NCBI GenBank assembly: GCA_903908535.1
Contig: CAIVSE010000033.1
Location: forward strand, 1 to 53,059
Length of the DNA stretch: 53,059 bases
DNA from: Candidatus Doudnabacteria bacterium
GTDB lineage: Bacteria > Patescibacteriota > Doudnabacteria > UBA920
Reading direction: 5' to 3'
The notes under the pieces are model-generated. The model had not been told where the DNA came from. It worked only from the letters and a program-made list of their open reading frames with translations, and ran no database searches. The translations under genes and the position numbers were made by a program. Positions within the stretch are counted from its first letter, which is position 1. Each line of letters starts with the position of its first letter. Shown here piece after piece: positions 2,565-48,336 of this stretch.

Positions 2565-2654
2565 TGGCGGAGAGAGGGGGATTCGAACCCCCGAGGGCTT
2601 TGACACCCTGCGCGCTTTCCAAGCGCGTGCACTCGACCACTATGCGACCTCTCC
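2565..2654 (-). tRNA. tRNA-Ser (anticodon GGA), CCA encoded
   Basis: The reverse complement GGAGAGGTCGCATAGTGGTCGAGTGCACGCGCTTGGAAAGCGCG...GGGGGTTCGAATCCCCCTCTCTCCGCCA folds as a cloverleaf. It has a long variable arm, the anticodon loop TTGGAAA and a GGGGG/CCCCC T-stem. Confidence 0.9.
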
Positions 2655-2871: not shown

Positions 2872-3068
2872 GTACAGACCTTAATTTTTTATACCGCGGC
2901 CGGCGATTGGCAGTTGTCAGACCATAACTTTGGCCAAAAAGCTTGGCCTTTTACGCCAGTAAAAGTTTTTGGACAAAGTTTTGAGTGAGGTTTTCCGCAG
3001 GAGAAAACCGAACGTGTCTGGCAATCTGCCAACGTTGGACGGACTAAAAAAATTAACGGTCTGTACAG
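2872..3068 (-). repeat. Nested-hairpin intergenic element, copy 1 (TTAA-type termini)
   Basis: The reverse complement aligns with the 13645-13830 copy (..ACGTTCGGTTTTCTCCTGCGGAAAACCTCACTC..TTTGTCCAAAAA..GCTTTTTGGCCAAAGTTATGGTCTG..). An outer inverted repeat GTACAGACC..TTAA / TTAA..GGTCTGTAC bounds it. Confidence 0.8.
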
Positions 3069-4903: not shown

Positions 4904-6172
4904 ATGAAGAAAAAAAGCCATAAGCACAAGGTAAAATTCGGCGGATCCGGATCCCGCTCCGCGGGAAAACCGCAGAAGAAGAAAATTAAACCCGCCAAAA
5001 AACTGGCCAAAAAGCGGGCGTCTTTAAAGGCGAAATTTACCGCGCCGCAGAGTTTGGAAGAATTGTCCGGCGCCAACGCGGTGTTAAAAAAATTGGTGGA
5101 TATTGCCAGCGAACGCGGATTTGTTACCGAGGCCGAGCTTATGCACGCCCTGCCGAATTTTGAAGACGACGTGGTCGCCCTGGAACGGGTGATGGACGAG
5201 CTGGAAAAGCGCGGCATAGAAATTGTCGACCAGGAAGTGGCCAGCGTCTGGGAGCAGAACAAAAAGCCGGAAGTTACGGAAATTGTGGTTAAAGGCAAAA
5301 AGAAAAAAGTCGAAGACATGGTGGATGCTTTTGACCTGGGTGATATTTACGACGACTCCATCCAAATGTATCTGCGGGAAATCGGCAAGGTCCCGTTAAT
5401 TACCGGTGCCGAAGAAATCGAACTGGCCAAGCGCATTGGCAAGGGTGATGTTTCGGCGCGCAAAAAATTGACCGAAGCCAACCTGCGTTTGGTGGTGAGC
5501 ATTGCCAAGAAGTATATGGGCCGCAATTTGGGGCTTTTGGATTTAATTCAGGAAGGCAACTTGGGTTTGTTCCGGGCTGTGGAAAAATTTGACTGGCGCA
5601 AAGGTTATAAATTTTCCACTTACGCCACCTGGTGGATCCGCCAGGCCATTACCCGCGCGTTAGCTGACCAGTCGCGCACTATCCGCATCCCGGTCCACAT
5701 GGTGGAAACCTTAAACAAGTATGCCCAGGCCGAGCGCCAGCTGGTGCAGGATTTAGGCCGCGAACCTTTGCCCGAAGAAATCGCCGCCGAGATGGGCATA
5801 GAGGTGGAAAAGGTCTATCATTTAAAAAAGATTTCCCAGGAAACGGTGTCCATAGATTCTCCGGTAGGGGAAGACGAAGGCGAAGATTCTTCACTGGGGG
5901 ATTTTATTGTGGATGAAGACACCACCAAGCCCAACGAAATGGCCGGCCGGCAGATTTTAAAGGAATACGTGGGTAATATTTTAAAGGATTTAGACCCCAG
6001 GGAGCAGAAAATTCTGCGCATGCGGTTTGGGCTGGAAGACGGCGTCACCCACACTTTGGAAGAAGTCGGCGAGGAATTTGGCGTGACCCGAGAACGTATA
6101 AGGCAAATTGAAAGCAAGGCTTTGGAACGCATAAGGGAGCATATTGACATTAACAAGTTAAGAGATTACTAA
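4904..6172 (+). CDS. rpoD: RNA polymerase sigma-70 factor
   Basis: Region 2 ([13 protein letters not shown]), region 3 and region 4 ([24 protein letters not shown]) are present, preceded by a basic N-terminal extension. Confidence 0.93.
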
Positions 6173-6393
6173 CTCCGGCGTCACTATATGTGTATTCACT
6201 AATTAAGAAAGGAATACACGGATGTCTAGTTTGTACCGCGGGAGTGCTTTTAAGCTTCCGGCGAACATCCTTAAAGGCGGTTAAGCCTTTTTGCTTCGGC
6301 ATCAATAATAAGAACAGTTTCGCCATGAACAAAAGCACCCCCTAAAAGCAGCCCACTCCATTAAGGACACGGCTGCTTTTGTTATAGCTTTAA

Positions 6394-6575
6394 TTTTCCT
6401 CTAGCACCTCGCCGACTTGTTTTTCAGAACACGTTCGAATTTTCCCAGCGAAAATTCTCACTCCGCTTTCAGCCCAAAAACTTTTTGACTTTCAGTCAAA
6501 AAGACCGGGCTTTTTGGGCTGAAAGAGGGTTCTAAAAAACAAGTACGGCTCGGCCTATTATTGGGAAAATGAAGG
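6394..6575 (+). repeat. Nested-hairpin intergenic element, copy 2
   Basis: Layout: TTTTCCTC..CCTCGCCG / ACTTGTTTTTCAGAAC / ACG / GAATTTTC-CCAGC-GAAAATTC / CTTTCAGCCCAAAAA / CTTTTTGACT-TTC-AGTCAAAAAG / ACC / GCTTTTTGGGCTGAAAG / GTTCTAAAAAACAAGT / CGGCTCGGCC..GGGAAAATGAAGG. Confidence 0.85.
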
Positions 6576-6600
6576 CTAAAAAAAATAGTGCCAGGAACAA

Positions 6601-10046: not shown

Positions 10047-10092
10047 CGCAAAAAAACCGATCCGTTTTTGCGGGCCGGTTTTTTATTTTTTT
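10047..10092. terminator. Bidirectional terminator between convergent genes
   Basis: Stem CCGCAAAAA...TTTTTGCGG has an A-run on one side and a T-run (TTTTTTATTTTTTT) on the other. Confidence 0.6.
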
Positions 10093-10483
10093 ATTGCGCA
10101 GTAATGTTATCCAGGGTAAAGCTGGCCAAGCCACCGGTGTAGCTAATATTTACCGGCTTGCCGACCAGCGCGCTGTAGTCGCGGCTGGTGTTGAGGTAAA
10201 TAACGTGGCCGGAGACGGTTATCATGTAGTTGCCTTTGGCCGTGTTATTGGAAGCCATCAGCGTGGTCTGCCAGGTGGCGCTGGCTGACGGCATGGCCGA
10301 AGAAGGCGCCGGGGTGGAATTATTAGCCGGCTGGTTAACGCTTTGGCTGGTGGACGGCGTGCTGGAAGGTTCGGGGGCGGCAGAACCGCATCCGGCGGCC
10401 AATAAGACTATCACAGGCACTAACAACAGGAGTTTTTTTCCCGCGAAGCGGGATCCCGCTTTGCGGGACATAAGCTTGTTCAT
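10091..10483 (-). CDS. Putative lipoprotein
   Basis: The signal peptide carries a lipobox (LLAAGCGS) and is followed by an S/T/P/A-rich linker. Confidence 0.65.
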   Translation of the reverse strand: MNKLMSRKAGSRFAGKKLLLLVPVIVLLAAGCGSAAPEPSSTPSTSQSVNQPANNSTPAPSSAMPSASATWQTTLMASNNTAKGNYMITVSGHVIYLNTSRDYSALVGKPVNISYTGGLASFTLDNITAQ

Positions 10484-10526
10484 AATTAGGTAATTTTAAT
10501 TACCCTAATTATAGCACTTTTTTATT

Positions 10527-13630: not shown

Positions 13631-13644
13631 TTCCCGCAGAGCGT

Positions 13645-13830
13645 TAATTTTTCTTAGTCCGTCGCCAAGTCCTTTTGCCGGACACGTTCGGTTTTCTCCT
13701 GCGGAAAACCTCACTCAGAACTTTGTCCAAAAACTTTATTTTATTGCTTCAAAATAAAGACCAAGCTTTTTGGCCAAAGTTATGGTCTGGACAAAAGGAC
13801 GTTGGTTCCGACTGTATAGGAAAAATTAAG
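13645..13830 (+). repeat. Nested-hairpin intergenic element, copy 3 (TTAA-type termini)
   Basis: The termini TTAATTTTTCTT...AGGAAAAATTAA pair with each other. The internal modules are the same as in copies 1 and 4. Confidence 0.85.
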
Positions 13831-14014
13831 CCTAACACCGGTCAGACCTTATTTTTTTGAGGCGAGGATTGTATGAGGTAATAATTTATCTTTATAAAGT
13901 CAAGGCCACACCCCCAACGGTTCCCTAGGGTGTGGCAAATAAGTAAAACATTATAGTAAATTATGGACGAGTTCCGCAGACCAAAAAAATTATGGTCTGG
14001 ACGGAAGTATATTT

Positions 14015-18257: not shown

Positions 18258-18290
18258 AAAAAATCCCGACATTAGTCGGGATTTTGGTTT
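18258..18290. terminator. Bidirectional terminator
   Basis: The hairpin AAAAAATCCCGAC-ATTA-GTCGGGATTTTGGTTTT lies between convergent genes. Confidence 0.75.
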
Positions 18291-18601
18291 TATATCCGTA
18301 TTTTTTGACAGCTTTCTATATGCTGCTGGAGCGGTATAGCTACGGTTTCCGCAATCATAGCAGCTAAATTTTCGGTTTGTTCAACCGCGAACTGTTTTAG
18401 GTCCTTGGATTGTTTTTCAAATCTTTCATCGAGCTTTTTGTCCATTTCCTGGCCAAAAGCTATGAATCTTGCATCCATCTTTTTGTCTATAACCTGGCCA
18501 AAAGCATCAAAACGCTTATCCAGAACCTCTTCTAATTCTTGTTTGTTGGTTTTAAAGCGTTTATCCAAGGCTTCTTCCAATTCAGAAAGTGTAATTTCCA
18601 T
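18290..18601 (-). CDS. Small helical protein of unknown function, paralog of 2148-2417
   Basis: MEITLSELEEALDKRF and the C-terminal VEQTENLAAMIAETVAIPLQQHIESCQKIRI match the paralog. The middle part differs and consists of (L/M)D(K/A/E)(R/K)F-type repeats. Confidence 0.7.
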   Translation of the reverse strand: MEITLSELEEALDKRFKTNKQELEEVLDKRFDAFGQVIDKKMDARFIAFGQEMDKKLDERFEKQSKDLKQFAVEQTENLAAMIAETVAIPLQQHIESCQKIRI

Positions 18602-18667
18602 AATATGGATTATTAATTATAATCAATAATGCCACATGGGCGGTCAAAAAATCGACCTTGTTATTTT

Positions 18668-18696
18668 ACATTACTCCCGCAGTTCTTAAGTGTCAA
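18668..18696 (-). promoter_or_regulatory. Sigma70-like promoter of 18290-18601 (TTGACA-17 nt-TAATGT)
   Basis: The minus strand reads TTGACActtaagaactgcgggagTAATGT. Two tandem TGTGGATA motifs (18699-18714) sit directly upstream. Confidence 0.5.
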
Positions 18697-18781
18697 ATTG
18701 TGGATATGTGGATACAAAAAATTCTGTTCGCCATTTGGCGGAGGGGTTTTAAAATAGCCAATATTTAGATATAATGAGTAT

Positions 18782-20858: not shown

Positions 20859-20887
20859 AAAATTCCGCACAATGGGTCCCATTGTTC

Positions 20888-21448
20888 CTACTGGCTAACT
20901 CTTTCCACATATTGCCCGTCGCGTGTATCTATGCGGATCATATCGCCTTCTTTTATAAACATGGGGGCGTTTACACTTAGTCCTGTTTCTAACTTTACAG
21001 GTTTGGTGACGTTGCCGCCGCTGTTGCCTTTGGTATCCGGCGGGGCTTCGGTAACTTTAAGCTCTATCTTAATTGGCAGTTCTATGGAAACGGGGCGGTT
21101 GTTAAAGCGCAAAATGCTGACTTCCATGCCTTCCTTTAAGTAGGCTTCCTGCTCCTGGGTGACTTCCTTGGCAATATCCACGGTTTCAAAGGTCTCATTG
21201 TTCATAAAGTGCGTGCCCTCGGCATCGGCATACAAAAAATTGGCTTTTTCGCGCACCACATCGGCTTCATCTATGCGTTCGCCAAACTTAAAGGAATATT
21301 CGTATTGCTTGCCGGTAATAACATTGCGAAGCTTGGTCTGCATCACGGGTTTGCGCTGGGCCGTGCGCATGCGGTTGCTCCAAATGACCTGCACGGGCTG
21401 GTTTTCCCACAGGATAATGGTCCCGATTTTCATGTCGTTTAAATCCAT
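20888..21448 (-). CDS. efp: Translation elongation factor P
   Basis: The EF-P layout is present over 186 aa (FMNNETFE, EAPPDTKGNSGGNVTKP, GDMIRIDTRDGQYVERV). The loop that normally carries KPGKG reads NRMRTAQRKP. Confidence 0.88.
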   Translation of the reverse strand: MDLNDMKIGTIILWENQPVQVIWSNRMRTAQRKPVMQTKLRNVITGKQYEYSFKFGERIDEADVVREKANFLYADAEGTHFMNNETFETVDIAKEVTQEQEAYLKEGMEVSILRFNNRPVSIELPIKIELKVTEAPPDTKGNSGGNVTKPVKLETGLSVNAPMFIKEGDMIRIDTRDGQYVERVSQ

Positions 21449-21478
21449 GGTGTATAAATAATAAGATTAATTGATTTG

Positions 21479-21578
21479 TTTTCCGGAGCCCGGATTCACT
21501 TCGGGCGGAGGAAAATCTTTGAAGGGAAAGGATGAGGCGAGCGAAGCGAGCAAGTTGAGAAGGAAAACCGACAAGGTT
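21479..21578. repeat. 100-nt direct repeat, copy 1 (between rpsR and efp)
   Basis: It matches 21872-21971 at 99 of 100 positions (TTTTCCGGAGCCCGgATTCACTTCGGGCGGAGGAAAATCTTTGAAGGG...AACCGACAAGGTT). Confidence 0.9.
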
Positions 21579-21593
21579 GTCCTTTTCAAAATC

Positions 21594-21851
21594 TTACGCT
21601 GCGACAAAAGGCAACAATGCCATGTGCCTGGCGTGTTTTAAGGCTTTGGTGACCATGCGCTGGTGCTTGGGGCAGGTGCCGGTGCGGCCATGGGCCAAAA
21701 TTTTGGCGTGCGGCGACATAAAGCGGCGCAGGGTTTGCGCGTCTTTGTAGTCCACGGTGGAAATTTTGTTGGAACAAAAATAGCACTGCTTTTTTACGGC
21801 AGGGGTGCTGTTGTTGTTTCGGCGGTCATAGCTGTTTTGGTGGGGTCTCAT
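21594..21851 (-). CDS. rpsR: 30S ribosomal protein S18
   Basis: It contains CYFCSNKISTVDYKD...LRRFMS and KHQRMVTKALKHARHMALLPF. Confidence 0.92.
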   Translation of the reverse strand: MRPHQNSYDRRNNNSTPAVKKQCYFCSNKISTVDYKDAQTLRRFMSPHAKILAHGRTGTCPKHQRMVTKALKHARHMALLPFVAA

Positions 21852-21871
21852 AATATTATTAAGATTAATAG

Positions 21872-21971
21872 TTTTCCGGAGCCCGAATTCACTTCGGGCG
21901 GAGGAAAATCTTTGAAGGGAAAGGATGAGGCGAGCGAAGCGAGCAAGTTGAGAAGGAAAACCGACAAGGTT
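21872..21971. repeat. 100-nt direct repeat, copy 2 (between ssb and rpsR)
   Basis: See copy 1. The flanks also share TTAAGATTAAT on the start-codon side. Confidence 0.9.
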
Positions 21972-21988
21972 TGCCTTCTCAAATTTTC

Positions 21989-22471
21989 TTAAAACGGGAT
22001 TCCATCCACGTTAATTTCTTCATCCTGGTTGATTACCGGTAATTCCTCGGCCGGGGGGTTGGGGATAAAATCGGTTCCTTGGGATTTTGGCGCTGGCTGG
22101 GGAGTACTGTTATAGCTTCCGGAAGAAGCGGATTGCCCGGCGGCCCGCTGCAGCATTATCATGTTATCGGCCACAATTTCGGTGCGGTAATTTTTTTTGC
22201 CGTCCTGGCCTTCCCAGCTGCGGGTTTGCAAACGGCCTTCTATATAAACCTGGGTGCCTTTTTTGAGGTACTGGTGGGCAATTTCTCCCAACTTGCGCCA
22301 CAGGACTACGTTGTGGTATTCCGGCGTATCAATTTTTTGTCCGGTTTCTTTGTTGGTGTAAGAATAATTAGTGGCCACAGAAAGGCTGGTGACATTGATT
22401 CCGGAAGGCGTGGTGCGCATTTCCGGGTCTTTAGTTAGCCGGCCAATTATCATGACTTTGTTTAAATCCAT
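21989..22471 (-). CDS. ssb: Single-stranded DNA-binding protein
   Basis: The OB-fold N-terminus reads MDLNKVMIIGRLTKDPE. A Gly/Pro/Gln-rich linker and an acidic C-terminal tip DGIPF follow. Confidence 0.92.
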   Translation of the reverse strand: MDLNKVMIIGRLTKDPEMRTTPSGINVTSLSVATNYSYTNKETGQKIDTPEYHNVVLWRKLGEIAHQYLKKGTQVYIEGRLQTRSWEGQDGKKNYRTEIVADNMIMLQRAAGQSASSGSYNSTPQPAPKSQGTDFIPNPPAEELPVINQDEEINVDGIPF

Positions 22472-23113: not shown

Positions 23114-24190
23114 TTAATTGGCAAACCTAAAGTGCACCACGTCGCCATCCTGTACTACATATTCTTTGCCTTCTACCCGAAGCCATCCCTTTTCCCTGGC
23201 CTGCACGTATCCGCCCGCTTCCAAAAGTTTATCCCACTGTATGACTTCAGCGCGGATAAAACCCTTTTCAAAATCAGTATGGATTTTACCGGCCGCCTGC
23301 GGGGCACGACTGCCGGCTTTGCAGGTCCAGGCTTTGCTCTCTTTTGGGCCGGCCGTTATAAAGGTAATCAATCCCAAAGTTTTATAAGCCGCAGTAATAA
23401 TTTTGTGCAGGCCGGATTCCTTTAATCCTAATTCTTCCAAATATTGGGCCCGGTCTTCGTCGGAAAGTTCGGAGAGTTCACTTTCCAATTGGGCGTCAAT
23501 CAGAATTTCCCCGGGTGCACAATGGGTCCCATTGTGCAGATAGGTTTTGGTATCTAAATCAAACTTATCGTTGGCCACAAATAAAAACGGTTTTTGGGTT
23601 AACAATTGGATATCCTTGCTGTGCTCTTTTTCTTCATCGGTCAGCGTTACGGTATTGGCCATATGCCCGGCTTCCAGGACGTGTTTGTATTTTTCCAAAA
23701 CCGCCTTTTTAACAATACTTTCGCGGTCGCCGCCTTTAGCCTGTTTGGCAACGTCAGGCAGGCGTTTTTCTACTGTTTGTAAGTCTGCTAATTGTAGTTC
23801 AATGGCAATGGTTTCCATATCCCGTTTAGGGTCTACATTACCGTTCACGTGGATAATATCTTTGCTTTCAAAAACTCGTGTAACTTCCATAATGGCGTCC
23901 ACTTCGCGGATGTGCGACAAAAATTTATTGCCCAAACCTTCGCCCTGGCTGGCACCCTTAACCAGGCCGGCAATATCTACAAATTCAATAGATGTGGGTA
24001 CAATTTTTTCGGATTTTTCCAGTTCCGCCAGTTTAGCCAAACGTTCGTCGGGCACGGCCACCACCCCGACATTGGGGTCTATAGTCGCGAACGGGTAGTT
24101 GGCGGCTTCCACCTTGGATTTAGTGATGGCGTTAAATAACGTTGATTTGCCGACGTTGGGCAGGCCGACAATGCCGATTTGGAAAGACAT
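23114..24190 (-). CDS. ychF: Ribosome-binding ATPase YchF
   Basis: It has GIVGLPNVGKSTLFNA, the coiled-coil insert and a C-terminal TGS-like region (WTCKAGSRAPQAAGKIHTDFEKGFIRAEV). Confidence 0.93.
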   Translation of the reverse strand: MSFQIGIVGLPNVGKSTLFNAITKSKVEAANYPFATIDPNVGVVAVPDERLAKLAELEKSEKIVPTSIEFVDIAGLVKGASQGEGLGNKFLSHIREVDAIMEVTRVFESKDIIHVNGNVDPKRDMETIAIELQLADLQTVEKRLPDVAKQAKGGDRESIVKKAVLEKYKHVLEAGHMANTVTLTDEEKEHSKDIQLLTQKPFLFVANDKFDLDTKTYLHNGTHCAPGEILIDAQLESELSELSDEDRAQYLEELGLKESGLHKIITAAYKTLGLITFITAGPKESKAWTCKAGSRAPQAAGKIHTDFEKGFIRAEVIQWDKLLEAGGYVQAREKGWLRVEGKEYVVQDGDVVHFRFAN

Positions 24191-27459: not shown

Positions 27460-28149
27460 TTATTGGGTTATCTCCGCCACGGTCGCATCGGCTAAGATTT
27501 TCATGGTGTCATAGATCTTGATGTTGTTTTGCTGGGGGATTAGCAATTGTAAATCGGTACAGGCCAAAATGATATTTTTGACATTCTTTTTTCCAAAATC
27601 TTGGATTACTGTGAGTAGCATATCCCTATCCTTGTTGTCGTATCGGCTGGAGACTATATTGTGTAAAAGTTTGCCAATTTTGGCTTGTTGCAGATTATCT
27701 GGTATTATAGAGGTAATGCCTTTTGCTTTGAGTGGTTGTTCATAGAGTTTACTTTTGGTGGTTATAGGTGTGGCAATAATCCCAACTTTTTTTATCGGTT
27801 GCTTTTTTAAGAATTTTGATGTTTCTTCTAAGATACTTAAGACCGGTATTTTTACCGATTCCCTTACCCCTTTTATAAATTTATGCAAAGAATTGCAGGG
27901 TAGAACTATAAAATCAGCCCCAGCTTTTTCCAAATTTTTTGCTGCTGCTAATAGTAATGGTAGGATTCTTTCTTCTCCGATACCGTCCGCTATGGCGTTT
28001 TTCTCGACATCAAATCGTAGGGGAATACTATCCACAAGGACGTGTGGATAACTAATTTTGTTTATCTTTTTGCACGAGAAAATTAGCTCTAAATAAAATT
28101 CAGAGGTTGTTTCCGGACCGAGACCGCCAATTATGCCAACTGTTTTCAT
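27460..28149 (-). CDS. Aspartate/glutamate racemase-family protein
   Basis: It starts MKTVGIIGGLGPETTSEFY and has the two catalytic Cys regions (VLPCNSLH, ILACTDL). Confidence 0.85.
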   Translation of the reverse strand: MKTVGIIGGLGPETTSEFYLELIFSCKKINKISYPHVLVDSIPLRFDVEKNAIADGIGEERILPLLLAAAKNLEKAGADFIVLPCNSLHKFIKGVRESVKIPVLSILEETSKFLKKQPIKKVGIIATPITTKSKLYEQPLKAKGITSIIPDNLQQAKIGKLLHNIVSSRYDNKDRDMLLTVIQDFGKKNVKNIILACTDLQLLIPQQNNIKIYDTMKILADATVAEITQ

Positions 28150-28305
28150 AAAATATTGTTTAATGTTAAAGAAAAACACCTGTGCGAAGCCTAGGTGTTA
28201 CATGACAAAAACCAAGGACTTTGCTATTGCAAGTCCCAGCGCCAAGTTATTAAATTTAGTCCGTTACTTTTCATAGTTAAATACTACAACGTTTAATAGT
28301 AGATG

Positions 28306-28893
28306 TCAATCTAAGTCATCCAAGGGGCGCCCTTGCAAACCCATTACAAACTGTAAGTATTTGAGGGGATCGTTATTGAATACATTTAAAATTATATTTT
28401 TATCACATAATGGATCGTCAATAAGGCCTAAAATTCCTTTAAGACTAGAATATTGATAGTTTACAGAGTCTTTTGGGTTTAGGTGAATATAGGCAGATAA
28501 ATTACTAAAATAACTGTCGGTGGTGACCAATTTGGCTTTAAACCTGTCCTGAAACACATGCCCTATATGATTATACTTTTTGTTAAAGTACATTGAATAG
28601 CTGGTGCAAAGTTTTAACACTAATTTGGATATTGGGATTTCCGCGTTTTGCCTAATAAAAAAATGGTAATGGTTAGTCATTAAACAGTAGCTGACTATAG
28701 TAAAGGAGCTTTTTGGCAACGGTTTGACTTTCAAGGGGCGCCCTAGGTAAGGGATATCCAAAATTATGTACAATCTTTTTAAAAAGTTGGAAAAATCTTG
28801 TTTATCCACAAAGATGTCTTGTTTATTATTACCCCTGTTGAAAACGTGATAAAATTGGCCCTTTTGAAGATTTTTGTTATCCCGGAATTGCAT
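28306..28893 (-). CDS. REP-associated tyrosine transposase (RAYT; Y1 HUH transposase, IS200-like fold)
   Basis: It contains QFYHVFNRGNN, the HUH motif in LMTNHYHFFI, GHVFQDRFKAK and the catalytic Tyr region AYIHLNP. The start was set at MQFRDNK because tandem repeats occupy the longer 5' extension. Confidence 0.85.
   Translation of the reverse strand: MQFRDNKNLQKGQFYHVFNRGNNKQDIFVDKQDFSNFLKRLYIILDIPYLGRPLKVKPLPKSSFTIVSYCLMTNHYHFFIRQNAEIPISKLVLKLCTSYSMYFNKKYNHIGHVFQDRFKAKLVTTDSYFSNLSAYIHLNPKDSVNYQYSSLKGILGLIDDPLCDKNIILNVFNNDPLKYLQFVMGLQGRPLDDLD
28322..28334. repeat. GC palindrome AAGGGGCGCCCTT (copy in the 3' codons of the RAYT gene)
   Basis: Read directly from the sequence. The motif was seen only at this locus in the window. 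Confidence 0.8.
28732..28747. repeat. GC palindrome CAAGGGGCGCCCTAGG (inside the RAYT ORF)
   Basis: Read directly from the sequence. It translates as LGRPL. Confidence 0.8.
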
Positions 28894-28914
28894 ATCTAAA
28901 TCATAACAAGAAGC

Positions 28915-28958
28915 AGATAACAAATAGATAACAAAAAGTTAACAGAAAGATAACAAAA
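28915..28958. repeat. Four ~11-bp-phased direct repeats AGATAACAAA / AGTTAACAGA
   Basis: AGATAACAAA starts at 28915, 28926 and 28948, and AGTTAACAGA at 28938. All lie upstream of the RAYT start. Confidence 0.75.
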
Positions 28959-28968
28959 GAGCACCCTT

Positions 28969-28984
28969 CTAGGGGCGCCCTTGT
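28969..28984. repeat. GC palindrome CTAGGGGCGCCCTTGT upstream of the RAYT gene
   Basis: Read directly from the sequence. It sits between the rnj stop and the RAYT start. Confidence 0.8.
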
Positions 28985-28988
28985 AAGC

Positions 28989-30842
28989 TTAGACCTCGAT
29001 GACTACCGGCAATACCATTGGCCGTCTTTCGGTCTTTTGGTACAGATATTCGCCAATTTCATCACGGATGACATTGCGGAGATAAGCCCAGTTGGGCTCC
29101 AGTTTTTCTTTACCCTTAGATTCAACCAGCTTCCGGACCTCGTGTTTAACCTCGCGAATTAGGTCATCATTACCCTTCATATAGATGAAACCGCGGGAAA
29201 TAATATCCGGCTGGTTCACCAGCTTGCCGCTGCGGCGGTCCAAAGTCATAATAATCACGAACATACCGTCCTGGGCCATAACCTGGCGGTCGCGGATAAC
29301 GACTTCACCCACGTCGCCAACGCCAAGACCATCTATAAAGACGTAGCCGGAGGCAATTTTGGCGTCTTCGGTAATTTTGGCTTCGCCGGCCGAGGTAATC
29401 TCCAGAATCTGGCCGTTGTCCAGCGAGAAAATCCGTTCCGGCGGAATGCCCATGGTCTGCGCCAGTTCGGCGTGGGTGACTATCATGTGGTGTTCGCCGT
29501 GGATAGGCATAAAGAACTTCGGTTTGACCAAGGCAATCATTAATTTTAATTCTTCCTGGTGCGCGTGGCCCGAGGTGTGGATGTCCAAAGTTTTGTTATA
29601 AATAACATGTGCCCCTAATCGGGTAAGATTCGACATGACTACGGCCACGGCGCGTTCATTGCCGGGAATGGGGGAGGCGCTGATAATGGCGGTATCACCC
29701 TTTTTAATTTTAATGGTTTTGTGGTCGCCGCGGGCAATGCGGGCCAAACCGGCGCCTTCTTCACCCTGCGAACCGGTGGTCAAGATGACAATCTGGCTGT
29801 CCGGATACTTTTTGGCCATCTCCGACTTAATAATTATTTTGGGCTGGATTTTAATGTAGCCTAAGGACAGCGCGATTTCTATATTGTTAACCATAGAACG
29901 TCCCGTAACAATAACTTTGCGGTTATATTTAGCCGCCGCGTTAAAGACCTGCTGGATGCGGGAAATGCTGGTGGAAAAGTTGGCAAAGACAATACGCCCT
30001 TTAATTTCGCTAAAAGTGCGCTCTATGGTGATGCCAATTTCGCGTTCACTGGCGCAGTAGCCGGGTTTAATGGCGTTGGTGGAGTCGGACATTAATAGCA
30101 GCACGCCTTCGGCGCCGAACTTGGCAATTTTATCAAATTCGGTGGGTTTGCCGTCCACCGGGGTGTGGTCGAATTTCCAGTCGGTGGCATAAACAATTTG
30201 CCCCACCGGCGTGGTAATGCACAGCCCCATACTGTCGGGAATGCTGTGGTTTAAGCGGAAAAAGCGAACTTTAAAGTTGCCCAAAGGCAACACGTCGTCT
30301 TTAGTTAAAACGTTAATTTTAGAGCGGCCCAAAAGACCAAACTCTTCCAAACGTTTTTTGATGAACCCGGCGGTTAAGGCCATGGTGTAAACCGGCGGGT
30401 CGCCGAGTTTGGGTAAAATATAAGGCACGGCGCCAATGTGGTCCAAATGGCCGTGGGTAATAATTACGCCGCGGATGCGCTTTTTATTGTCTTCCAGCCA
30501 TTTGGTGTCCGGAATAATATAGTCAATGCCGGGCATGGTGTCGTCCGGGAAGGCCAAACCCATGTCGATGATAATAATATCATCGCCATATTCAATGGCC
30601 GTCATGTTTTCCCCGACTTCTTCCACGCCGCCCATGGGGATAACGCGCAGGTTCTGGCGGGACGCCGTATAGCGGCTGGTCGCCAAAGGCACCGGCATTT
30701 TTTGCGGCTCGGCTATTGCCGCGGTAGTGGTGTTGGTGGCTTTATTGATTAAAGCCTCCAGGCGGTCTTCGGCCGCGCCCACAGGTTTTGGGGCCTGGGA
30801 CTTATTTTTACTATGGAACATATTTTTTCTCATCATGAGCAA
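28989..30842 (-). CDS. rnj: Ribonuclease J
   Basis: It has the metallo-beta-lactamase motif ITHGHLDHIGA, a beta-CASP region and a C-terminal domain. The N-terminal extension makes the exact start uncertain. Confidence 0.9.
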   Translation of the reverse strand: MLMMRKNMFHSKNKSQAPKPVGAAEDRLEALINKATNTTTAAIAEPQKMPVPLATSRYTASRQNLRVIPMGGVEEVGENMTAIEYGDDIIIIDMGLAFPDDTMPGIDYIIPDTKWLEDNKKRIRGVIITHGHLDHIGAVPYILPKLGDPPVYTMALTAGFIKKRLEEFGLLGRSKINVLTKDDVLPLGNFKVRFFRLNHSIPDSMGLCITTPVGQIVYATDWKFDHTPVDGKPTEFDKIAKFGAEGVLLLMSDSTNAIKPGYCASEREIGITIERTFSEIKGRIVFANFSTSISRIQQVFNAAAKYNRKVIVTGRSMVNNIEIALSLGYIKIQPKIIIKSEMAKKYPDSQIVILTTGSQGEEGAGLARIARGDHKTIKIKKGDTAIISASPIPGNERAVAVVMSNLTRLGAHVIYNKTLDIHTSGHAHQEELKLMIALVKPKFFMPIHGEHHMIVTHAELAQTMGIPPERIFSLDNGQILEITSAGEAKITEDAKIASGYVFIDGLGVGDVGEVVIRDRQVMAQDGMFVIIMTLDRRSGKLVNQPDIISRGFIYMKGNDDLIREVKHEVRKLVESKGKEKLEPNWAYLRNVIRDEIGEYLYQKTERRPMVLPVVIEV

Positions 30843-31147
30843 AAAACCTTTATAATTTAGGTTGCGCGCCTAAATAACTAAATTAATTAAGATATTAAAC
30901 ATCAGCGCTTCCCCAAGCACAGTGGGAAGTTAATGTTTCTACAATATGATGGCCTATACGGCCGATCAGATCGATTGCCAGCGCAAATTAACAAATGACA
31001 ACACAAAATAGGAGGATTTTTAAACTGTCATTTACTAATTTACCTTTTGTTTCTAAGGAATTTTAGAATCAGTACAGTCATTATAGCATAGGGGTGGAAT
31101 TCCGTCAAATTTGGATTTTTTATCCGTCATGTTATAATATGGTTACT

Positions 31148-31360
31148 ATGTATACAGCGGTTTATAAAAAATCAGGTAAATATTATTGTGGCTGGGTTTT
31201 AGAGGTACCCGGAGCAAACAGTCAAGCGACCACTAAAAAAGGGTTGGAAGCCAATTTAAAGGACGCTATAGAGTTGGTTTTGGAAGCCAGGGAAAAATAT
31301 TTACGTAAAGAACTGGGTACTGTTAAGATTTCCAAGTTGCCTTTAATATTGGCCAGTTAA
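31148..31360 (+). CDS. hicB: HicB-family antitoxin
   Basis: MYTAVYKKSGKYYCGWVLEVPGANSQATTKKGLEANLKDAIELVLE has the HicB/UPF0150 pattern. The gene lies directly upstream of hicA. Alternative starts are at 31139 and 31094. Confidence 0.75.
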   Translation: MYTAVYKKSGKYYCGWVLEVPGANSQATTKKGLEANLKDAIELVLEAREKYLRKELGTVKISKLPLILAS

Positions 31361-31368
31361 ATTCCTTT

Positions 31369-31563
31369 ATGAAGCGCAGGGATTTAATACGGTACATTTT
31401 GTCATTTGGATGTTTAGTAGGCCGGGAAGGTTCCAGACATACAGTTTTTATTAATCCCAATTCCGGTCAGGTGTCAACGGTCCCCAGGCATAATGAAATT
31501 AAAACTTTCTTAGGAAAAAAGATTTGCCAGGATTTAGGGATTCCGCTAATAAAGACAAAGTAA
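31369..31563 (+). CDS. hicA: HicA-family mRNA interferase toxin
   Basis: The 64-aa product carries EGSRHTVFINPNSGQVSTVPRHNEIKTFLGKKICQDLGI. Confidence 0.85.
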   Translation: MKRRDLIRYILSFGCLVGREGSRHTVFINPNSGQVSTVPRHNEIKTFLGKKICQDLGIPLIKTK

Positions 31564-31664
31564 AAATACTCATCTTTCAATGAGTATTTTTGGTGCAACC
31601 TGTTTGACGAAGTTGGAACCGTTTTAACCCAGAACTTGCTTTGATTTTGCCTATAAAATTACTG

Positions 31665-31934
31665 TCATTGGTTTTGCTGTGGGTTTAATGGCACCGCTTT
31701 GGCTACATTCTTAAATCTCCATTTGAAATAAAGGTAGCTGACCAAATAAGCAAAAATTGTATACCCAAAAAGTTCAATTAGGCTTTGCGCATCACGTGCG
31801 GCAACAACACTAAATAGGCATAAGACAAAGTTCGTAATTGTATAACCCGTTGTTATTTTTTTTGCATCTTCCGGCACAAAAATTTTATACAAAATCAGTA
31901 ATGCCCCCGCTAAGGATAATATATATAAAATCAA
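31665..31934 (-). CDS. Small membrane protein (3 TM segments)
   Basis: The product is hydrophobic. No family was recognised. Confidence 0.5.
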   Translation of the reverse strand: MILYILSLAGALLILYKIFVPEDAKKITTGYTITNFVLCLFSVVAARDAQSLIELFGYTIFAYLVSYLYFKWRFKNVAKAVPLNPQQNQ

Positions 31935-32036
31935 AGCAATTATAGCCTGTGAAGATAAGCCGCCTTGCGTTAAACTAGCCGGAAGAAGCGCGCCTAAGAT
32001 TACAAAAATGATAAACTGAATTATAATGAAATAGAT

Positions 32037-32576
32037 TTCTCCGCAGCTTGCTGCGGGGGCCCCTGCCCAGCTACAATAGGAGTATGAGTGAACCCATACG
32101 GAAACGACACAACGTCAATTGCCTGCTTTACCACCTGGTATGCCCTGCCAAGTACCGCAGAAAAGTGTTTTCCGAAGCCGTGGAGGCCACATTGAAGACC
32201 GTATGCTGTGATGCCATAGAATTTGGCTTTGAGATGCGCTTTGTGGAAATCGGGGCTGATGAAGACCATGTGCACTTCCTGATCCAGACTGTCCCGACAA
32301 TGCAGCCAAGCCGCATGGTCCAAATCATCAAAAGTATCACCGGACGCCAAATCTTCGAAAGACACCCGGAAGTCAAGAGAATGCTGTGGGGAGGGCAGTT
32401 TTGGACCAGCGGCTACTACATTAACACGGTAGGCCTCCACGGGAACGAGGAAACGATTAGGAAATACGTGGAAGGACAGGGAAAAGATTACAAATTAATA
32501 CACCGCGGACAGCTGACGTTGTTTGAAGGCCTGACATCCATCGGGCACTGATACCTCGCAGCTTGCTGCGGGGTGA
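32037..32576 (+). mobile_element. IS200/IS605-family insertion sequence (TnpA only)
   Basis: The same 17-nt hairpin-forming sequence CGCAGCTTGCTGCGGGG occurs at both ends (32042-32058 and 32557-32573), flanking a Y1 transposase gene. Confidence 0.85.
32084..32551 (+). CDS. tnpA: IS200/IS605-family Y1 transposase
   Basis: It contains YHLVCPAKYRRKVF, the HUH motif in DHVHFLIQ and the catalytic Tyr region WTSGYYINTVG. Confidence 0.92.
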   Translation: MSEPIRKRHNVNCLLYHLVCPAKYRRKVFSEAVEATLKTVCCDAIEFGFEMRFVEIGADEDHVHFLIQTVPTMQPSRMVQIIKSITGRQIFERHPEVKRMLWGGQFWTSGYYINTVGLHGNEETIRKYVEGQGKDYKLIHRGQLTLFEGLTSIGH

Positions 32577-32682
32577 TTCATTAATAAGTATCATTTTCAG
32601 GCTAAATTTGTTTTGCATATTTTATGTTAATTTTTTTTTTGAATTTACAAACATCCTTTATTTTTTTAAAGTTTTTAACATG

Positions 32683-33063: not shown

Positions 33064-33221
33064 GGTTTTTGTTACTACTTATTTATGCCCCTATTATACC
33101 ATATCTGTAAAAAGCTGGCTTATTTTCTATGTTTTGGTGACCAACTTTATTAAATTGAGCCGTAATTGTTTCCTTTCATTTTTTGCCTTTTCATGCTAAA
33201 TTAAGTACATAAACAACAGCT

Positions 33222-44382: not shown

Positions 44383-44391
44383 CGCTTTCAT

Positions 44392-44575
44392 TTTTCCCCT
44401 GGTCCCTCGCCGACTGGCTTTTTGGGACACGCTCATGTTTCTCCAGCGGAAACACTCGCTCATAACTTTGTCCAAAAACTTTATTTTACTGCTTTAAAAT
44501 AAAGACCAAGCTTTTTGGCCAAAGTTATGGTCCCAAAAAGCCAGTTCGGCTCGGCCTAGTATGGGAAAAATGAAG
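44392..44575 (+). repeat. Nested-hairpin intergenic element, copy 4
   Basis: TTTTCCCCTGGTCCCTCGCCG / ACTGGCTTTTTGGGAC (perfect 16-bp pairing with GTCCCAAAAAGCCAGT) / ... / CGGCTCGGCC..GGGAAAAATGAAGC. Confidence 0.88.
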
Positions 44576-44584
44576 CAATTCAGA

Positions 44585-44768
44585 CCCCTAATTTTTTAGC
44601 AAAGACCGAGCCGTTGTTGTTTTTCGGGACCGTCAGTTGGCCCAAAAAGCCTGGTCTTTTTGACTTAAAGTCAAAAAGTTTTTGGGACAACTGCCGAAGG
44701 AGTATTTTTGCTGGGAAAATACGACTGTGTCCTGAAAAACAACACGGCGAGGGACCAGGGGAAAATGG
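44585..44768 (-). repeat. Nested-hairpin intergenic element, copy 5 (convergent with copy 4)
   Basis: The reverse complement aligns module by module with copy 2. The 21-nt terminus is identical to that of copy 4. Confidence 0.88.
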
Positions 44769-44825
44769 AGGCATGGAGGCTTTGGCGCCTTTACTCGCCA
44801 GGCCCTATTTGTTAAACTTAATTAT

Positions 44826-45662: not shown

Positions 45663-46880
45663 ATGCCTAAAAAGTCCTGTCCTTACTGCGGCAACAATCC
45701 GGTGCCGCATTTGATCAATTGGTATTTCGAAAGTTTAAACGTGCTGTTTACGCCCATCCGCCAGCGCCTGTTTTATAACGCCCTGTCGGAAAAAATAGGG
45801 AAGATGGCCCAAAATTGGGATTTGGGCTTAAAGGCCGTGGGTTTGCTACAATCGGTAAAAATTATCACGTCCCAAAGCGACATCCATGCCTGCAAAGTCG
45901 GGCGGGCGGAAGTTTTGTGGGAAGATGCCCTTAGGCGCGACATTAATATGCAAGAATTACTGCTGTTTGGTCGGCCGTTTGATACCTACCTTGCCGAAAA
46001 AAACGGGCGGACTATTTTATTCAGCGGTTTGCCGCGGCCAAAAAATTACAGCAAGTCAGCGCTGGAAACCATGGATGACAAAATAGCGTTAAAACATAAA
46101 CTTAAGGAAATAAATTTACCGGTGCCGCGGGGCGGCGTGGCCCTTACTTTTTTACAGGCCAAAAAGATATTTAACGAAATTAGCAAGCCGGTAATAGTCA
46201 AGCCGCGCGAAGGCAGCCGCGGCCGTCACAGCACCACCCATGTTTACACTTTAGAGCAGCTGAAGAAAGCCTTTAAAGTCGCCAAGCAGTTATGTTTGTG
46301 GGTGATTGTGGAAGAACATTTAAAGGGGCCGGTTTATCGCGGTACAGTGATTAACTATAAAACCGTTGGCGTATTGCGCGGCGACGCGCCCAGGGTGACG
46401 GGAGATGGAACCCATAGTATACTCGACCTGGTCACTGCCAAAAATGCCGCGCCGCATGAACGGATAGCGGATATAAAATTAGATGACCGCGCCAAAGTTT
46501 TTTTGTCCAGGCAAAATTTAAGCTTCGGATCCATTCCTAAAAACGGCGAAGTCGTGGAGACTTCGGAGAAAATTGGCTTGAGCTATGGCGGCAGTTCCAG
46601 CGAAGATTATGACATTTGCCACCCGGATAATCTTAATATGTTTGAAGACGCGGCTAAAATAATGGGCGACCCAATTGTGGGCTTTGATTTTATTATAGAG
46701 GACATTGCCAAATCCTACAAAGAACAAAAGTGCGGATTTATAGAAGCCAATTCTTTGCCGTTTATAGATTTGCACCACCATCCGCTGCTCGGCCGGCCGC
46801 GCAATGCCGCGGCCGCGGTCTGGGATTTAGTCTTCCAAAAGGACATTGGCTCTGTCTGTGTGGAAAAATTAAGGTTTTGA
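45663..46880 (+). CDS. ATP-grasp enzyme resembling the N-terminal ATP-grasp module of cyanophycin synthetase (no Mur-ligase module)
   Basis: The segments DDKIALKHKLKEINLPVPRG, PVIVKPREGSRGRH, VIVEEHLKGPVYRGTVIN, PRVTGDGTHSILDL and FIEANSLPFIDLHHHP follow the recalled CphA ATP-grasp pattern. Confidence 0.7.
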   Translation: MPKKSCPYCGNNPVPHLINWYFESLNVLFTPIRQRLFYNALSEKIGKMAQNWDLGLKAVGLLQSVKIITSQSDIHACKVGRAEVLWEDALRRDINMQELLLFGRPFDTYLAEKNGRTILFSGLPRPKNYSKSALETMDDKIALKHKLKEINLPVPRGGVALTFLQAKKIFNEISKPVIVKPREGSRGRHSTTHVYTLEQLKKAFKVAKQLCLWVIVEEHLKGPVYRGTVINYKTVGVLRGDAPRVTGDGTHSILDLVTAKNAAPHERIADIKLDDRAKVFLSRQNLSFGSIPKNGEVVETSEKIGLSYGGSSSEDYDICHPDNLNMFEDAAKIMGDPIVGFDFIIEDIAKSYKEQKCGFIEANSLPFIDLHHHPLLGRPRNAAAAVWDLVFQKDIGSVCVEKLRF

Positions 46881-47055
46881 TTTTCCCCTGCCATAGAGGG
46901 AGTCGGAACCATTTTTTAGGACCGTCAGTTGGCCCAAAAAGCCTGGTCTCCGACGATACGTCGGAGTTTTTGGGACAACTGTCGAGTGCAGTATTGGCGC
47001 TGGCCAATACAAACGTGTCCTGAAAAATGGGCCGGCGACGACTTTGGGGAAAATG
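46881..47055 (-). repeat. Nested-hairpin intergenic element, copy 6 (fills the whole gap between two convergent genes)
   Basis: It has TTTTCCCC...GGGGAAAA termini. The P2/P3 helices match copy 5, while both side hairpins are replaced by unrelated but still self-complementary sequences. Confidence 0.88.
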
Positions 47056-47058
47056 AAA

Positions 47059-48336
47059 CTATCTTAGCCTCCACTTAATCTGTTCCTCTACTAATAGTTT
47101 AGGCAAAGCGTACCTGAGCCGGCTAAGGTTAACCACCTGTTCGGTTGCGGCAGTGTGTTCTGTGGCCACGGGCGCCAGGCTGGTGCCGGAAAAAGCCTGG
47201 CTGGTCTGGCCGTCTATCATCAGTTTTAAGTAAAAATTGAACTTGTCCAAATTGGCCAAATCCCGGGCCTCAAACGGCTGGAATTCGCGTGCCAGCATTT
47301 CGGCGTCTTCCTGCCCGACCTGAAAAGCCAGCAGGGTACCGCAGTTGCCCAAAATGGCGGTCTGGATTTTTTTGGGCAGCTGGGCGAAATATTGGTTGGT
47401 CAAATGCACGCCCAGGCCGTATTTGCGGGATTCGGAAAGCATGCCGGCAAAAGTTTCGGTGGTTAAATTTTGGAACTCATCCACGTACAAATAAAACGGG
47501 TAGCGCTGTTTGGCGTCCACAGAGGCCCGTTTTAACACCGCGGCCTGCAGCTTGGAAATGACGATCAGTCCCAGCATAAAAGCGTTGAGCTCGCCGATTT
47601 TACCCTTGCTTAAATTGACCAAAAAAATTTTTTCACCGGTCAGTATATCATCAAAACTAAAACTGCCGCGGGTTTGGCCGATAATATTGCGGCAAAGTTC
47701 ATTGCCCAAAAAGTGGCCGAATTTGGAATTAAAGTAATTCAGCATTTCGCTGCGGTGGAAATCGGAAGTCCGGGACATTTGGCCGCCCCAAAATTCCCGC
47801 ACCAACGGGTCGGCCACATGCGAGCGTTTTTTAAGCTCAAAATTTTTATCCACAAACAGCTTGGGAATTTCCGCCAAACTCGCGCCGTGGGGATCCGCCA
47901 TCAAAGTTAGCGCCGCGTTGCGCAGCCAGTGCTCAAACTGCGGGCCAATAATGCCGGTGCGTTCGGGATCGAATAATTTGTAAAAAATTTCAATGAGTTC
48001 GCCGACCAAAAAATCCTGTTCGCCTTTGGTCTGGGCTTCCAGCAAATTCAGCCCCACCGGGAATTGGCCGTCCGCCGGGTTTAAGTAAACCACGTCCTCC
48101 AGGCGGGAAGCCGGAATGCGCGAAAGCAGCCATTCCACGCTTTCACCGTGCGGGTCCACAAAACACACGCCGCGGTGGTTTAATATGTCCTGCAAAGCCA
48201 TGTTGGCAAACAAAGTGGATTTACCCACGCCGGTTTTGCCTATCATATACATATGGCGCAGGCGGTCGGCATTGTTAAAAACAATGGGTGTGGATTTTCC
48301 TCTGTAAATATTATGGCCTAAGGTAATGGAATTCAT
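47059..48336 (-). CDS. Soluble P-loop ATPase of the VirD4/TraD/HerA (FtsK-like, DUF87-type) class
   Basis: It has Walker A GKTGVGKST, VDPHGE, Walker B FYLYVDEFQN and SESRKYGLGVHLTNQ. There is no N-terminal TM segment. Its start overlaps the upstream stop (ATGA). Confidence 0.75.
   Translation of the reverse strand: MNSITLGHNIYRGKSTPIVFNNADRLRHMYMIGKTGVGKSTLFANMALQDILNHRGVCFVDPHGESVEWLLSRIPASRLEDVVYLNPADGQFPVGLNLLEAQTKGEQDFLVGELIEIFYKLFDPERTGIIGPQFEHWLRNAALTLMADPHGASLAEIPKLFVDKNFELKKRSHVADPLVREFWGGQMSRTSDFHRSEMLNYFNSKFGHFLGNELCRNIIGQTRGSFSFDDILTGEKIFLVNLSKGKIGELNAFMLGLIVISKLQAAVLKRASVDAKQRYPFYLYVDEFQNLTTETFAGMLSESRKYGLGVHLTNQYFAQLPKKIQTAILGNCGTLLAFQVGQEDAEMLAREFQPFEARDLANLDKFNFYLKLMIDGQTSQAFSGTSLAPVATEHTAATEQVVNLSRLRYALPKLLVEEQIKWRLR

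Follow-up and report, generated by a model that had tools for sequence, protein, structure and literature searches.

The locus and its repeats

The window analyzed in this study is the complete contig CAIVSE010000033.1 (53,059 nt) of Candidatus Doudnabacteria, one of the Patescibacteria or bacteria of the Candidate Phyla Radiation (CPR), and the subject is a hairpin-forming repeat that occurs six times between its genes. Those genes form an ordinary housekeeping set: dnaG, rpoD, trxB, riboflavin genes, mutM, bcp, relA/spoT, uvrC, the genes for RNase J and EF-P, the S6-SSB-S18 cluster, and genes for TrpRS or TyrRS (class I W/Y family), an ATP-grasp protein, a TraG/TrwB-like protein and a ClpB-like protein. 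An initial annotation had placed the repeat among dnaG-rpoD, trxB/riboflavin kinase and mutM/bcp and had pointed to two Y1 (HUH) transposase genes in the same window, and all of these genes are indeed as named.

Two covariance models were used, R1 built from the six window copies and a broader model, R2, built later from an enlarged set. R1 has only six full-length matches in the window, scoring 149-194 bits, its other matches being weak reverse-strand echoes, and R2 returns the same six copies with no seventh. A core pattern with 23 specified bases matches six times as well, against 0.00 expected (100 shuffles). By all three means the copies lie within a few bases of where they were first placed. 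The sites are also linked to one another by direct repeats (D1, D5, D6, D10) and inverted repeats (I1-I8) reported by a repeat finder, and a MAFFT alignment of the six stretches has a mean column identity of 67%, with blocks of invariant columns. The copies measure 172-202 nt, and no reading frame is open throughout them. A search for the pattern CTCGCC..GGCTCG returned only copies already known.

Copy 1 (6379..6580, plus strand; model core 6392-6574; R1 191.6 bits, R2 170.8 bits) lies between convergent genes, with the terminator hairpin of rpoD on one side and the 3' end of a minus-strand AAA_33 gene on the other. Its nearest relative from another metagenome (L065:733-933) is 87.6% identical to it over 6379-6580, while the flanks are unrelated, and from this span the window-type unit can be put at ~200 nt, with imperfect terminal inverted repeats (TIRs) of ~17-20 nt (..AGCYTTMATTTTCC / GGAAAATKAAGSCT..) in the window subfamily. 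Copy 2 (13643..13833, plus strand; R1 match 13645-13830, 177.8 bits) begins 13-15 nt past the stop codon of trxB (13630) and precedes the riboflavin kinase gene. Copies 3 and 4 form a tail-to-tail dimer between mutM and bcp. The first unit (44385..44577, plus strand; match 44390-44575, 194.3 bits) begins 3-8 nt past the mutM stop codon (44380-44382), and the second (44578..44772, minus strand; match 44586-44767, 179.6 bits) lies upstream of bcp. The two units belong to different subfamilies, and the arms of the dimer are only 74% complementary (I2).

Copy 5 (46877..47059, minus strand; match 46877-47055, 149.4 bits) occupies all of the space that separates the convergent ATP-grasp and TraG/TrwB-like genes: the TGA of the former (46878-46880) lies inside one terminus of the copy, and the stop codon of the latter (47059-47061) abuts the other end. 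Copy 6 (2872..3066, minus strand; 154.7 bits over 2878-3056) lies between a tRNA gene (2568-2654, minus strand) and dnaG (plus strand), and its terminal pairing reaches further outward (GTACAGACC/GGTCTGTAC). With respect to their neighbors, copies follow rpoD, trxB, mutM and the TraG-like gene in the same orientation, and stand head-on to bcp and dnaG.

Two details of the surroundings may be recorded here. The ATP-grasp open reading frame (ORF; 46831-46880) extends ~12 codons beyond the ends of its homologues, through GGAAAAATTAAGG (46862-46875), to the TGA within the minus-strand copy 5. GGAAAAATTAAGG resembles the 3' terminus of a plus-strand copy of the element, and this tail of the ORF may be what is left of an earlier (+)(-) dimer of the kind found in the related locus L083 (see below). 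The 13-nt sequence TTATGGTCTGGAC, on the 3' side of copy 2 (13779-13792), recurs 210 nt downstream at 13990-14003, shortly ahead of the riboflavin kinase gene and as part of a small hairpin, CAGACCAAAAAAATTATGGTCTG; either a fragment left by a further copy or mere chance could explain the match.

Two ideas about the unit were dropped. The sequence GTTCGAAT in copy 1, considered as a tRNA T-loop, is not kept in the other copies, and no stand-alone outer hairpin occurs in the window, as might be expected if the window-type unit were a core nested in a smaller outer palindrome.

A nested fold maintained by covariation

RNAalifold, applied to the six copies, gives 56 consensus pairs, 28 of which show a compensatory change in at least one copy. 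All six share one nested fold, consisting of helices P1, P2 and P3, a side hairpin Ha and a tip hairpin Hb. This is the layout of the initial annotation, recovered here both by RNAalifold and by the folding of single sequences, and the alignment contains the strings that it gave for P2, P3, Ha and Hb. The first copy (6394-6575) has a folding energy of -70.1 kcal/mol, as compared to -40.8 in shuffles (z = -6.2), and its complement folds equally well.

In copy 1 (all positions on the plus strand), the 5' strand of P1 (TTTTCCT, 6394..6400) pairs with GGGAAAA (6563-6569) inside the imperfect TIR. The 5' strand of P2 (6411..6430) pairs with 6529-6549. Ha (6437..6457) has the stem GAATTTTC/GAAAATTC and the loop CCAGC. 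P3 (6466..6525) pairs 6466-6480 with 6511-6525 and encloses Hb (6481-6503) as well as an unpaired ACC bulge (6504-6506), part of a conserved (A/G)GACC motif. Across the family, P1 (helix 1) is 78-82% paired, with 7/7 pairs changed on both sides, and P2 (helix 2) is 88-89% paired, with the same true of all 20 of its pairs. Ha (helix 4) is 96-98% paired; each of its eight pairs has changed on both sides, with up to four pair types per position. The Ha loop, (T/C)CC(A/T)GC(G), is constant family-wide although the letters of the stem vary freely.

The strength of the covariation was assessed on A8, a model alignment of 27 of the 28 full-length copies (an earlier alignment, A6, gave similar figures). 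Standard pairs occupy 88.8% of the cells, as compared to 61% in shuffles, and 49 of the 56 pairs have changed on both sides, counts that are somewhat inflated by the fitting of the alignments to the model. None of 500 shuffles reaches the observed pairing and covariation, and when the 3' partners are slid by 1-3 columns, pairing falls to 36-53%. That the fold is kept by covariation and is more elaborate than a terminator, as first proposed, is strongly supported, and the covariation extends to other CPR lineages.

The motif CCAAAAAC/GCTTTTTGG requires more caution. It appears to be constant, but most of the distant copies were retrieved by a pattern demanding the core motif CCAAAAAC...GCTTTTTGG, and so its invariance is partly circular. 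Two copies found by synteny vary at the motif and are still complementary (CGAAAAAT/...TTTTTCG and TCAAATTT/AAATTTGA).

The sequence was also compared with known RNA families. The whole window, run against Rfam 15 at the gathering threshold, yields 3 tRNAs only, and two copies (the dimer region), run at E up to 10, yield only chance miRNA-like matches of 11-20 bits, against thresholds of 40-160.

Distribution among CPR bacteria

Relatives were reached by homology search with the ATP-grasp protein of the window (an identical protein is not on record), whose homologues come from Patescibacteria, followed by synteny-based fetching. The other routes of retrieval were a core-pattern scan of one genome per GTDB species and a metagenome scan. 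Altogether, R2 scores 28 copies as full-length (38-171 bits), distributed over the window and 15 other loci. Full-length matches to R1 occur in Candidatus Berkelbacteria (OY969116.1, three loci) and in Candidatus Collierbacteria (UBA2277). Plasmid records, phage records and IMG/VR viral contigs contain nothing similar to the element, and a literature search combining CPR/Patescibacteria with miniature transposable elements with inverted repeats (MITEs), repetitive extragenic palindromic (REP) sequences, and palindromic or structured-RNA topics turned up no description of such an element. The hairpin repeat is apparently an undescribed element family of CPR bacteria.

Signs of mobility

The initial annotation suggested a comparison of orthologous gaps for empty sites, and occupancy of such gaps does vary. 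Between mutM and bcp, where the window has 378 nt of two elements, the related locus L082 (its ATP-grasp protein 77% identical) has an empty gap of ~20 nt. Occupancy of the gap between the ATP-grasp and TraG-like genes also differs between relatives: a single minus-strand copy in the window, a (+)(-) pair in L083, and in L081 a plus-strand copy truncated after the 5' strand of P3. L083 has an extra copy just upstream of the ATP-grasp gene, at a site without a copy in the window.

Two other observations concern copies at unrelated sites. On the Berkelbacteria chromosome, three copies have a virtually identical core of ~140 nt between unrelated flanks. Tail-to-tail dimers of units from different subfamilies, with ends that abut or overlap, occur at three unrelated loci: the window (44390/44586), L065 (746/927) and L083 (11218/11396).

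Copies within genes

At four other loci the element lies within long ORFs, identified by Pfam as encoding AlaRS (L067), TsaD (L040, the same as L088/L089), MiaA (L027) and a PMT_2/TPR glycosyltransferase (L005, from Collierbacteria). In the first three cases, comparison with a solved homologue places an insertion that matches the coordinates of the element: at ORF residues 245-297 in AlaRS (residues 247-262 of 1RIQ), 81-145 in TsaD (residues 87-96 of the homologue) and 120-167 in MiaA (residues 170-186 of the homologue). The evidence for the glycosyltransferase copy is the spanning ORF and the Pfam matches. A fifth genic copy occupies the same TsaD site in the gene for P0122 (L085, 10200-10378; R2 47.7 bits). 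The element is antisense in AlaRS, TsaD and MiaA and sense in the glycosyltransferase, and the frames differ. Outside of genes proper, the copy in L010, between PMT and SOD genes, is pressed against coding ends much as copy 5 is.

Comparison of 22 CPR TsaD proteins shows that many do without the insert (e.g., P0129, P0130 and P0159), while P0122 and the Berkelbacteria protein P0134 carry one at the same site. R2 finds no match in the P0134 gene, and the element there appears degenerate.

The host frame is open in 5/5 genic copies, as compared to 17 of 126 frames (13.5%) in intergenic copies, a difference with a nominal p of ~4e-5 that is inflated by how genic copies were recognized. Nor did any interrupted gene turn up in which the frame is closed. 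In an AlphaFold2 model of TsaD P0121 (mean predicted local distance difference test score, pLDDT, 85; predicted template modeling score, pTM, 0.82), residues 80-118, which are part of the insert, have a pLDDT below 50, and the fold around the insert is intact; the insert peptide includes ...HRPKSMVPALAGF.... These results indicate that the genic copies are translated, tolerated insertions, as described for Rickettsia palindromic elements. In-frame insertion was unforeseen by the initial annotation, and it is the most informative feature of the family. Two protein searches returned nothing: a word-index search with the 58-aa TsaD insert peptide gave no candidates, and the open-frame translation of the copy at 44586, run with HMMER against all 1.84 billion representatives, gave 0 matches.

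Genic copies are far more stably folded than their shuffles (z from -4 to -9.5), and the two orthologous TsaD copies, L088 and L085, permit a closer look at how the fold is kept. The host proteins are 73% identical, with a third-position identity of 0.49. The inserts have an identity of 0.43 at third positions and of 0.67 and 0.69 at first and second positions, which amounts to near-neutral divergence. Mapped to the model structure, the comparison counts 32 unchanged pairs, 10 that have changed on both sides and still pair, 2 that have changed on one side and still pair, and 5 that are lost; a 24-nt stretch of Ha is identical in both orthologues although its surroundings diverge. Neutral decay would give mostly one-sided changes, and therefore selection on the fold, arm-to-arm correction, or overwriting by other copies must act. 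Whatever its cause, the hairpin is maintained even inside coding sequence.

CPR TsaD proteins are variable in other respects as well, with insertions at four or more sites (alignment A7). The TsaD gene of L090 has two identical in-frame repeats of ~95 nt, at 1208-1303 and 1676-1792 (peptide ...SEMPVTRTKFESRLARAA...), and peptides similar to SEMPVTRTKFESRLARAA occur at other sites of other TsaDs. Neither a tRNA nor strongly structured (z = -0.8), the L090 repeat therefore represents a different family of intragenic repeats.

Interpretation

I would put at about 0.6 the probability that the six sequences are copies of a mobile or selfish, non-autonomous DNA repeat family of Patescibacteria/CPR bacteria. 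The unit, ~150-200 bp, would be one in which either single strand folds into a long imperfect hairpin (P1-P2-P3) with the side hairpin Ha and the tip hairpin Hb. Copies would spread to new sites and persist where the host tolerates them: between genes, against stop codons, and as extra in-frame loops of proteins. A trans-acting enzyme presumably recognizes the folded form (hairpin or cruciform, probably single-stranded DNA), in which case the stems may matter for their structure alone and sequence-specific contacts may be made by the motifs that are constant and unpaired, the candidates being ACNCG before Ha, the CCWGC(G) loop, the GACC bulge and the A5/T5 base of P3. Two explanations had been offered at the outset, a non-autonomous hairpin element and a structured non-coding RNA (ncRNA) or module of the 3' untranslated region (3'-UTR). 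The former better fits the differences in occupancy, the mixed orientations, the unrelated loci and the in-frame copies, and the latter is weakened.

Several observations weigh against a mobile element. No parent transposon or linked enzyme was found: no insertion sequence (IS) ends in the window resemble the element, and plasmid and phage records gave no match to it. Inspection by eye of the flanks of all window copies and of six Berkelbacteria-type copies revealed no consistent direct repeat (TA included) of the sort left by target-site duplication. An exact empty/filled pair at nucleotide resolution was not obtained, because the closest relative shares only ~80% amino-acid identity. Conservation is highest at the center and lowest at the ends, the reverse of classical TIR-driven MITEs, and the core similarity of the Berkelbacteria copies begins at GCTCGCC and ends at GGCTCGC, with no recognizable TIR beyond. 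The fitting of the alignments and the retrieval by motif, mentioned earlier, belong on the same side. So do the TsaD copies, since a purely decaying selfish insert would not keep its pairing through 10 double changes; that pairing was kept despite near-neutral divergence implies some constraint or DNA-level correction in place.

A bolder proposal, which I regard as tentative and on balance improbable, is that the element is not simply a decaying insert and that its folded single-stranded form is under continuing constraint everywhere, even in essential genes, as the substrate of a CPR-specific machinery of mobilization or processing (new hairpin-dependent transposition or homing, or excision at the level of RNA). 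The family might also move horizontally between CPR phyla.

It is rather unlikely, on present evidence, that the repeat is instead a structured ncRNA or 3'-UTR module with a function for the host (stabilization, RNase processing or bidirectional termination), multiplied because it is useful downstream of genes. Such a function would suit the four of six window copies that start 0-220 nt downstream of a co-oriented gene, as well as the very stable folds (z from -4 to -12), the conserved loop and bulge motifs, and the extensive covariation. Furthermore, antisense Hb followed by TTTTTGGG passes a simple terminator scan in three of the six window copies, each time facing the upstream gene, though the stems are A+T-rich and this portion is a small part of the whole unit. 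Orientation to flanking genes is inconsistent, however, with genic copies both antisense and sense, occupancy differs among close relatives, no Rfam family matches even at E = 10, and a strong terminator within AlaRS or TsaD would harm the host. The mismatches within stems speak to the same question. G·U barely exceeds A·C (48 vs 33 on A6, 62 vs 49 on A8), with no clear excess, and therefore neither strand is singled out as a functional RNA; this symmetry fits neutral decay of DNA copies after insertion better than a strand-specific RNA. Two wobbles do recur on the modeled strand, a U·G closing Ha in 15/27 copies and a G·U at pair 96/158 in 9/27, which counts in favor of an RNA.

As one possibility, the initial annotation considered mobilization by the window's two HUH genes, which would make the repeat a REP/REPIN-type element or a palindrome-associated transposable element (PATE) moved as single-stranded DNA by the Y1 enzyme of a REP-associated tyrosine transposase (RAYT)-like gene (28306-28923) or of the IS200 TnpA gene (32048-32551). 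IS200/IS605 and RAYT enzymes recognize their substrates in a hairpin-dependent and sequence-tolerant manner. Both genes do encode a Y1_Tnp domain, and the TnpA gene reaches 122 bits with the IS200 model. Among NCBIfam models the RAYT-like gene matches REP_Tyr_transpos best, with 32 bits where the cutoff is 80, so that it is no more than a weak relative of RAYT. Doublets occur in REPINs too, and in three window copies CGTC, the tag of one REP superfamily (PMC3733652), stands just 5' of P2. The link to these two genes is not supported. The left and right ends of the IS200 both carry its own, unrelated hairpin, CCGCAGCTTGCTGCGGGG (32040-32058 and 32554-32573), which the element lacks. Neither R1, R2 nor inspection for hairpins found the element or anything similar beside the RAYT-like gene (28100-29100). 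The unit is ~5x the length of a REP and conserved at its center. A tblastn search of the 609 kb of fetched loci found no Y1 transposase gene, though action in trans needs no linkage. I therefore consider either gene a doubtful source of mobility. A hairpin-dependent HUH enzyme remains a reasonable candidate for the mobilizer, though nothing ties the element to these two genes.

An equally doubtful idea is that the covariation reflects not selection on the fold but arm-to-arm correction of a DNA quasi-palindrome (through template switching within a strand or through mismatch repair that acts on extruded hairpins), the repeat being otherwise neutral. Quasi-palindrome correction is an established mutational process, and it would account for pairs that are overwhelmingly Watson-Crick on both strands (1235/1460 cells of A8) and for the near equality of G·U and A·C. 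It would also account for the TsaD copies, in which third positions of the insert diverge about as those of the host gene (0.43 vs 0.49) and yet 10 double changes stand beside 2 single changes and 5 lost pairs. Correction should symmetrize the element, yet the one-sided Ha branch, the GACC bulge and the constant loops persist across lineages, asymmetries that argue against a purely symmetrizing process, as does the identical 24-nt Ha stretch of the TsaD orthologues. Moreover, correction accounts for the upkeep of stems, not for the origin or spread of the family.

CPR rRNA genes carry intervening sequences, and a structured insert in essential genes whose paired ends bring the flanks together recalls them, but that the genic copies are removed after transcription (intron-like, or by RNase III excision then religation) and never reach the protein is scarcely credible, given that all five are open in the host frame (with the ascertainment caveat above), that both orientations and different frames are used, that no group I, group II or other ribozyme model matches, and that none of the interrupted genes seen has a closed frame.

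If the repeat is a mobile or selfish element, it has consequences beyond this contig. CPR genomes are very small and streamlined, and therefore a repeat of 150-200 bp present six times in 53 kb is unexpected ballast. It would be a second, independent case of selfish DNA inside protein-coding genes, best known from Rickettsia, also a lineage of reduced genomes, and may help account for many unexplained insertions in CPR proteins, such as the variable loops of TsaD. Invariant unpaired motifs combined with freely covarying stems across phylum-level lineages offer a good handle for finding the mobilizing enzyme. On the practical side, the element should serve as a marker and as an annotation mask for CPR bins, since it supplies stop codons and present gene callers let ORFs run into it. 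Of most interest is the reason for the preservation of the fold within coding sequence as well, and the orthologous in-gene copies of TsaD provide a natural test case to distinguish selection on structure from DNA-level palindrome correction.

Other features of the window

The IS200 (32040-32573) lies in a segment of low GC content (0.39-0.43) from 31000 to 36800, together with genes for a DUF805 protein and a RadC-like JAB protein, two ORFs without a Pfam match and a gene for a large serine recombinase (35211-36731), whose 3' end overlaps a tRNA gene (36681-36764, minus strand). The segment has the look of a mobile element that integrated at a tRNA and has no relation to the hairpin repeat.

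A second repeat family is represented by a direct repeat of ~125 nt, 96% identical, at 21460-21600 and 21853-21993, flanking the S18 gene (21594-21851, minus strand) in the S6-SSB-S18 cluster. Within it are a TTTTCCGGAGCCCG...CGGGCGGAGGAAAA hairpin and a stretch of GCGAGCGAAGCGAGC, and it has no Rfam match. Three collinear blocks of direct repeats (73-86% identical) connect 2146-2540 with 18288-18721, evidence of a duplication by which a small minus-strand ORF lacking any Pfam match (2148-2606; 18290-18601), together with the region upstream of it, is present at two places 16 kb apart. The self-palindromic GCACAATGGGTCCCATTGTGC occurs in two inverted copies (20864-20902 and 23502-23540; I9) that bracket the block from EF-P to YchF. 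Finally, a 49-nt inverted repeat, 73% complementary and rich in GGATCCCGC/GCGGGATCC (4921-4969 and 10436-10484; I6), connects the start of rpoD, where one arm lies, with the 5' end of a minus-strand ORF (10091-10483) for which Pfam has no match.

Comparison with known systems

The element shares features with several known systems. In three cases (REP/REPIN, PATE and attC) membership fails on defining features, and the simple terminator also appears not to fit. REPs are 20-40 bp in length, have a GTAG or CGTC head and typically flank a RAYT gene (PMC3733652). Like REPs and REPINs, the CPR copies are hairpin repeats found mostly downstream of genes or between convergent genes, sometimes as inverted doublets, and the window has a Y1 gene weakly related to RAYT. 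Unlike REPs, the unit is 150-200 bp with a branched, conserved center, and CGTC precedes P2 in only 3/6 window copies. Unlike REPINs, the dimers join units of different subfamilies, and none flanks the RAYT-like gene.

The ends of IS200/IS605 elements and of the PATEs, which are derivatives of such elements without an ORF, resemble the repeat in relying on DNA hairpins rather than TIRs, and an IS200 copy is at hand in the window. The IS200/IS605 ends, however, are two separate subterminal hairpins, whereas the CPR element is one global nested hairpin, unrelated in sequence to either end.

The attC sites of integrons lie directly 3' of ORFs, are used as folded single-stranded DNA and conserve structure with little conservation of sequence. 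The CPR repeat is similar in its conservation of structure over sequence, its presumed use as folded single-stranded DNA and its sites directly 3' of ORFs. It differs in that its neighbors are core housekeeping genes rather than cassettes, that R''/R' (RYYYAAC/GTTRRRY) are not at its ends, and that copies also lie in genes. No integron integrase is near the element among the annotated genes of the window.

With MITEs (Correia, ERIC, QMITE, BOX) the family has in common a size below 500 bp, multiple copies (28 in total, six of them in 53 kb), non-coding character, stably folding transcripts, a mostly intergenic location with occasional in-frame fusions and, in the window subfamily, imperfect TIRs. 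It departs from them in lacking any target-site duplication or parent IS that could be found, in having its ends least and its center most conserved, in one subfamily without recognizable TIRs, and in covariation that spans phylum-level lineages.

The Rickettsia palindromic elements (RPEs) are palindromic repeats without a transposase of their own, found between genes and in-frame in unrelated housekeeping genes of reduced genomes (PMC10969869). The CPR element differs from them in its host phylum, its greater length, its branch (Ha) and its conserved center. RPEs are described with a conserved peptide in one frame, whereas the CPR copies are read in different frames and both orientations, and only 5/28 CPR copies are genic. 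In behavior, nonetheless, RPEs are the closest analogue: both are short palindromic hairpin repeats without their own transposase, intergenic as well as in-frame at positions tolerated by the protein fold, in small, reduced genomes.

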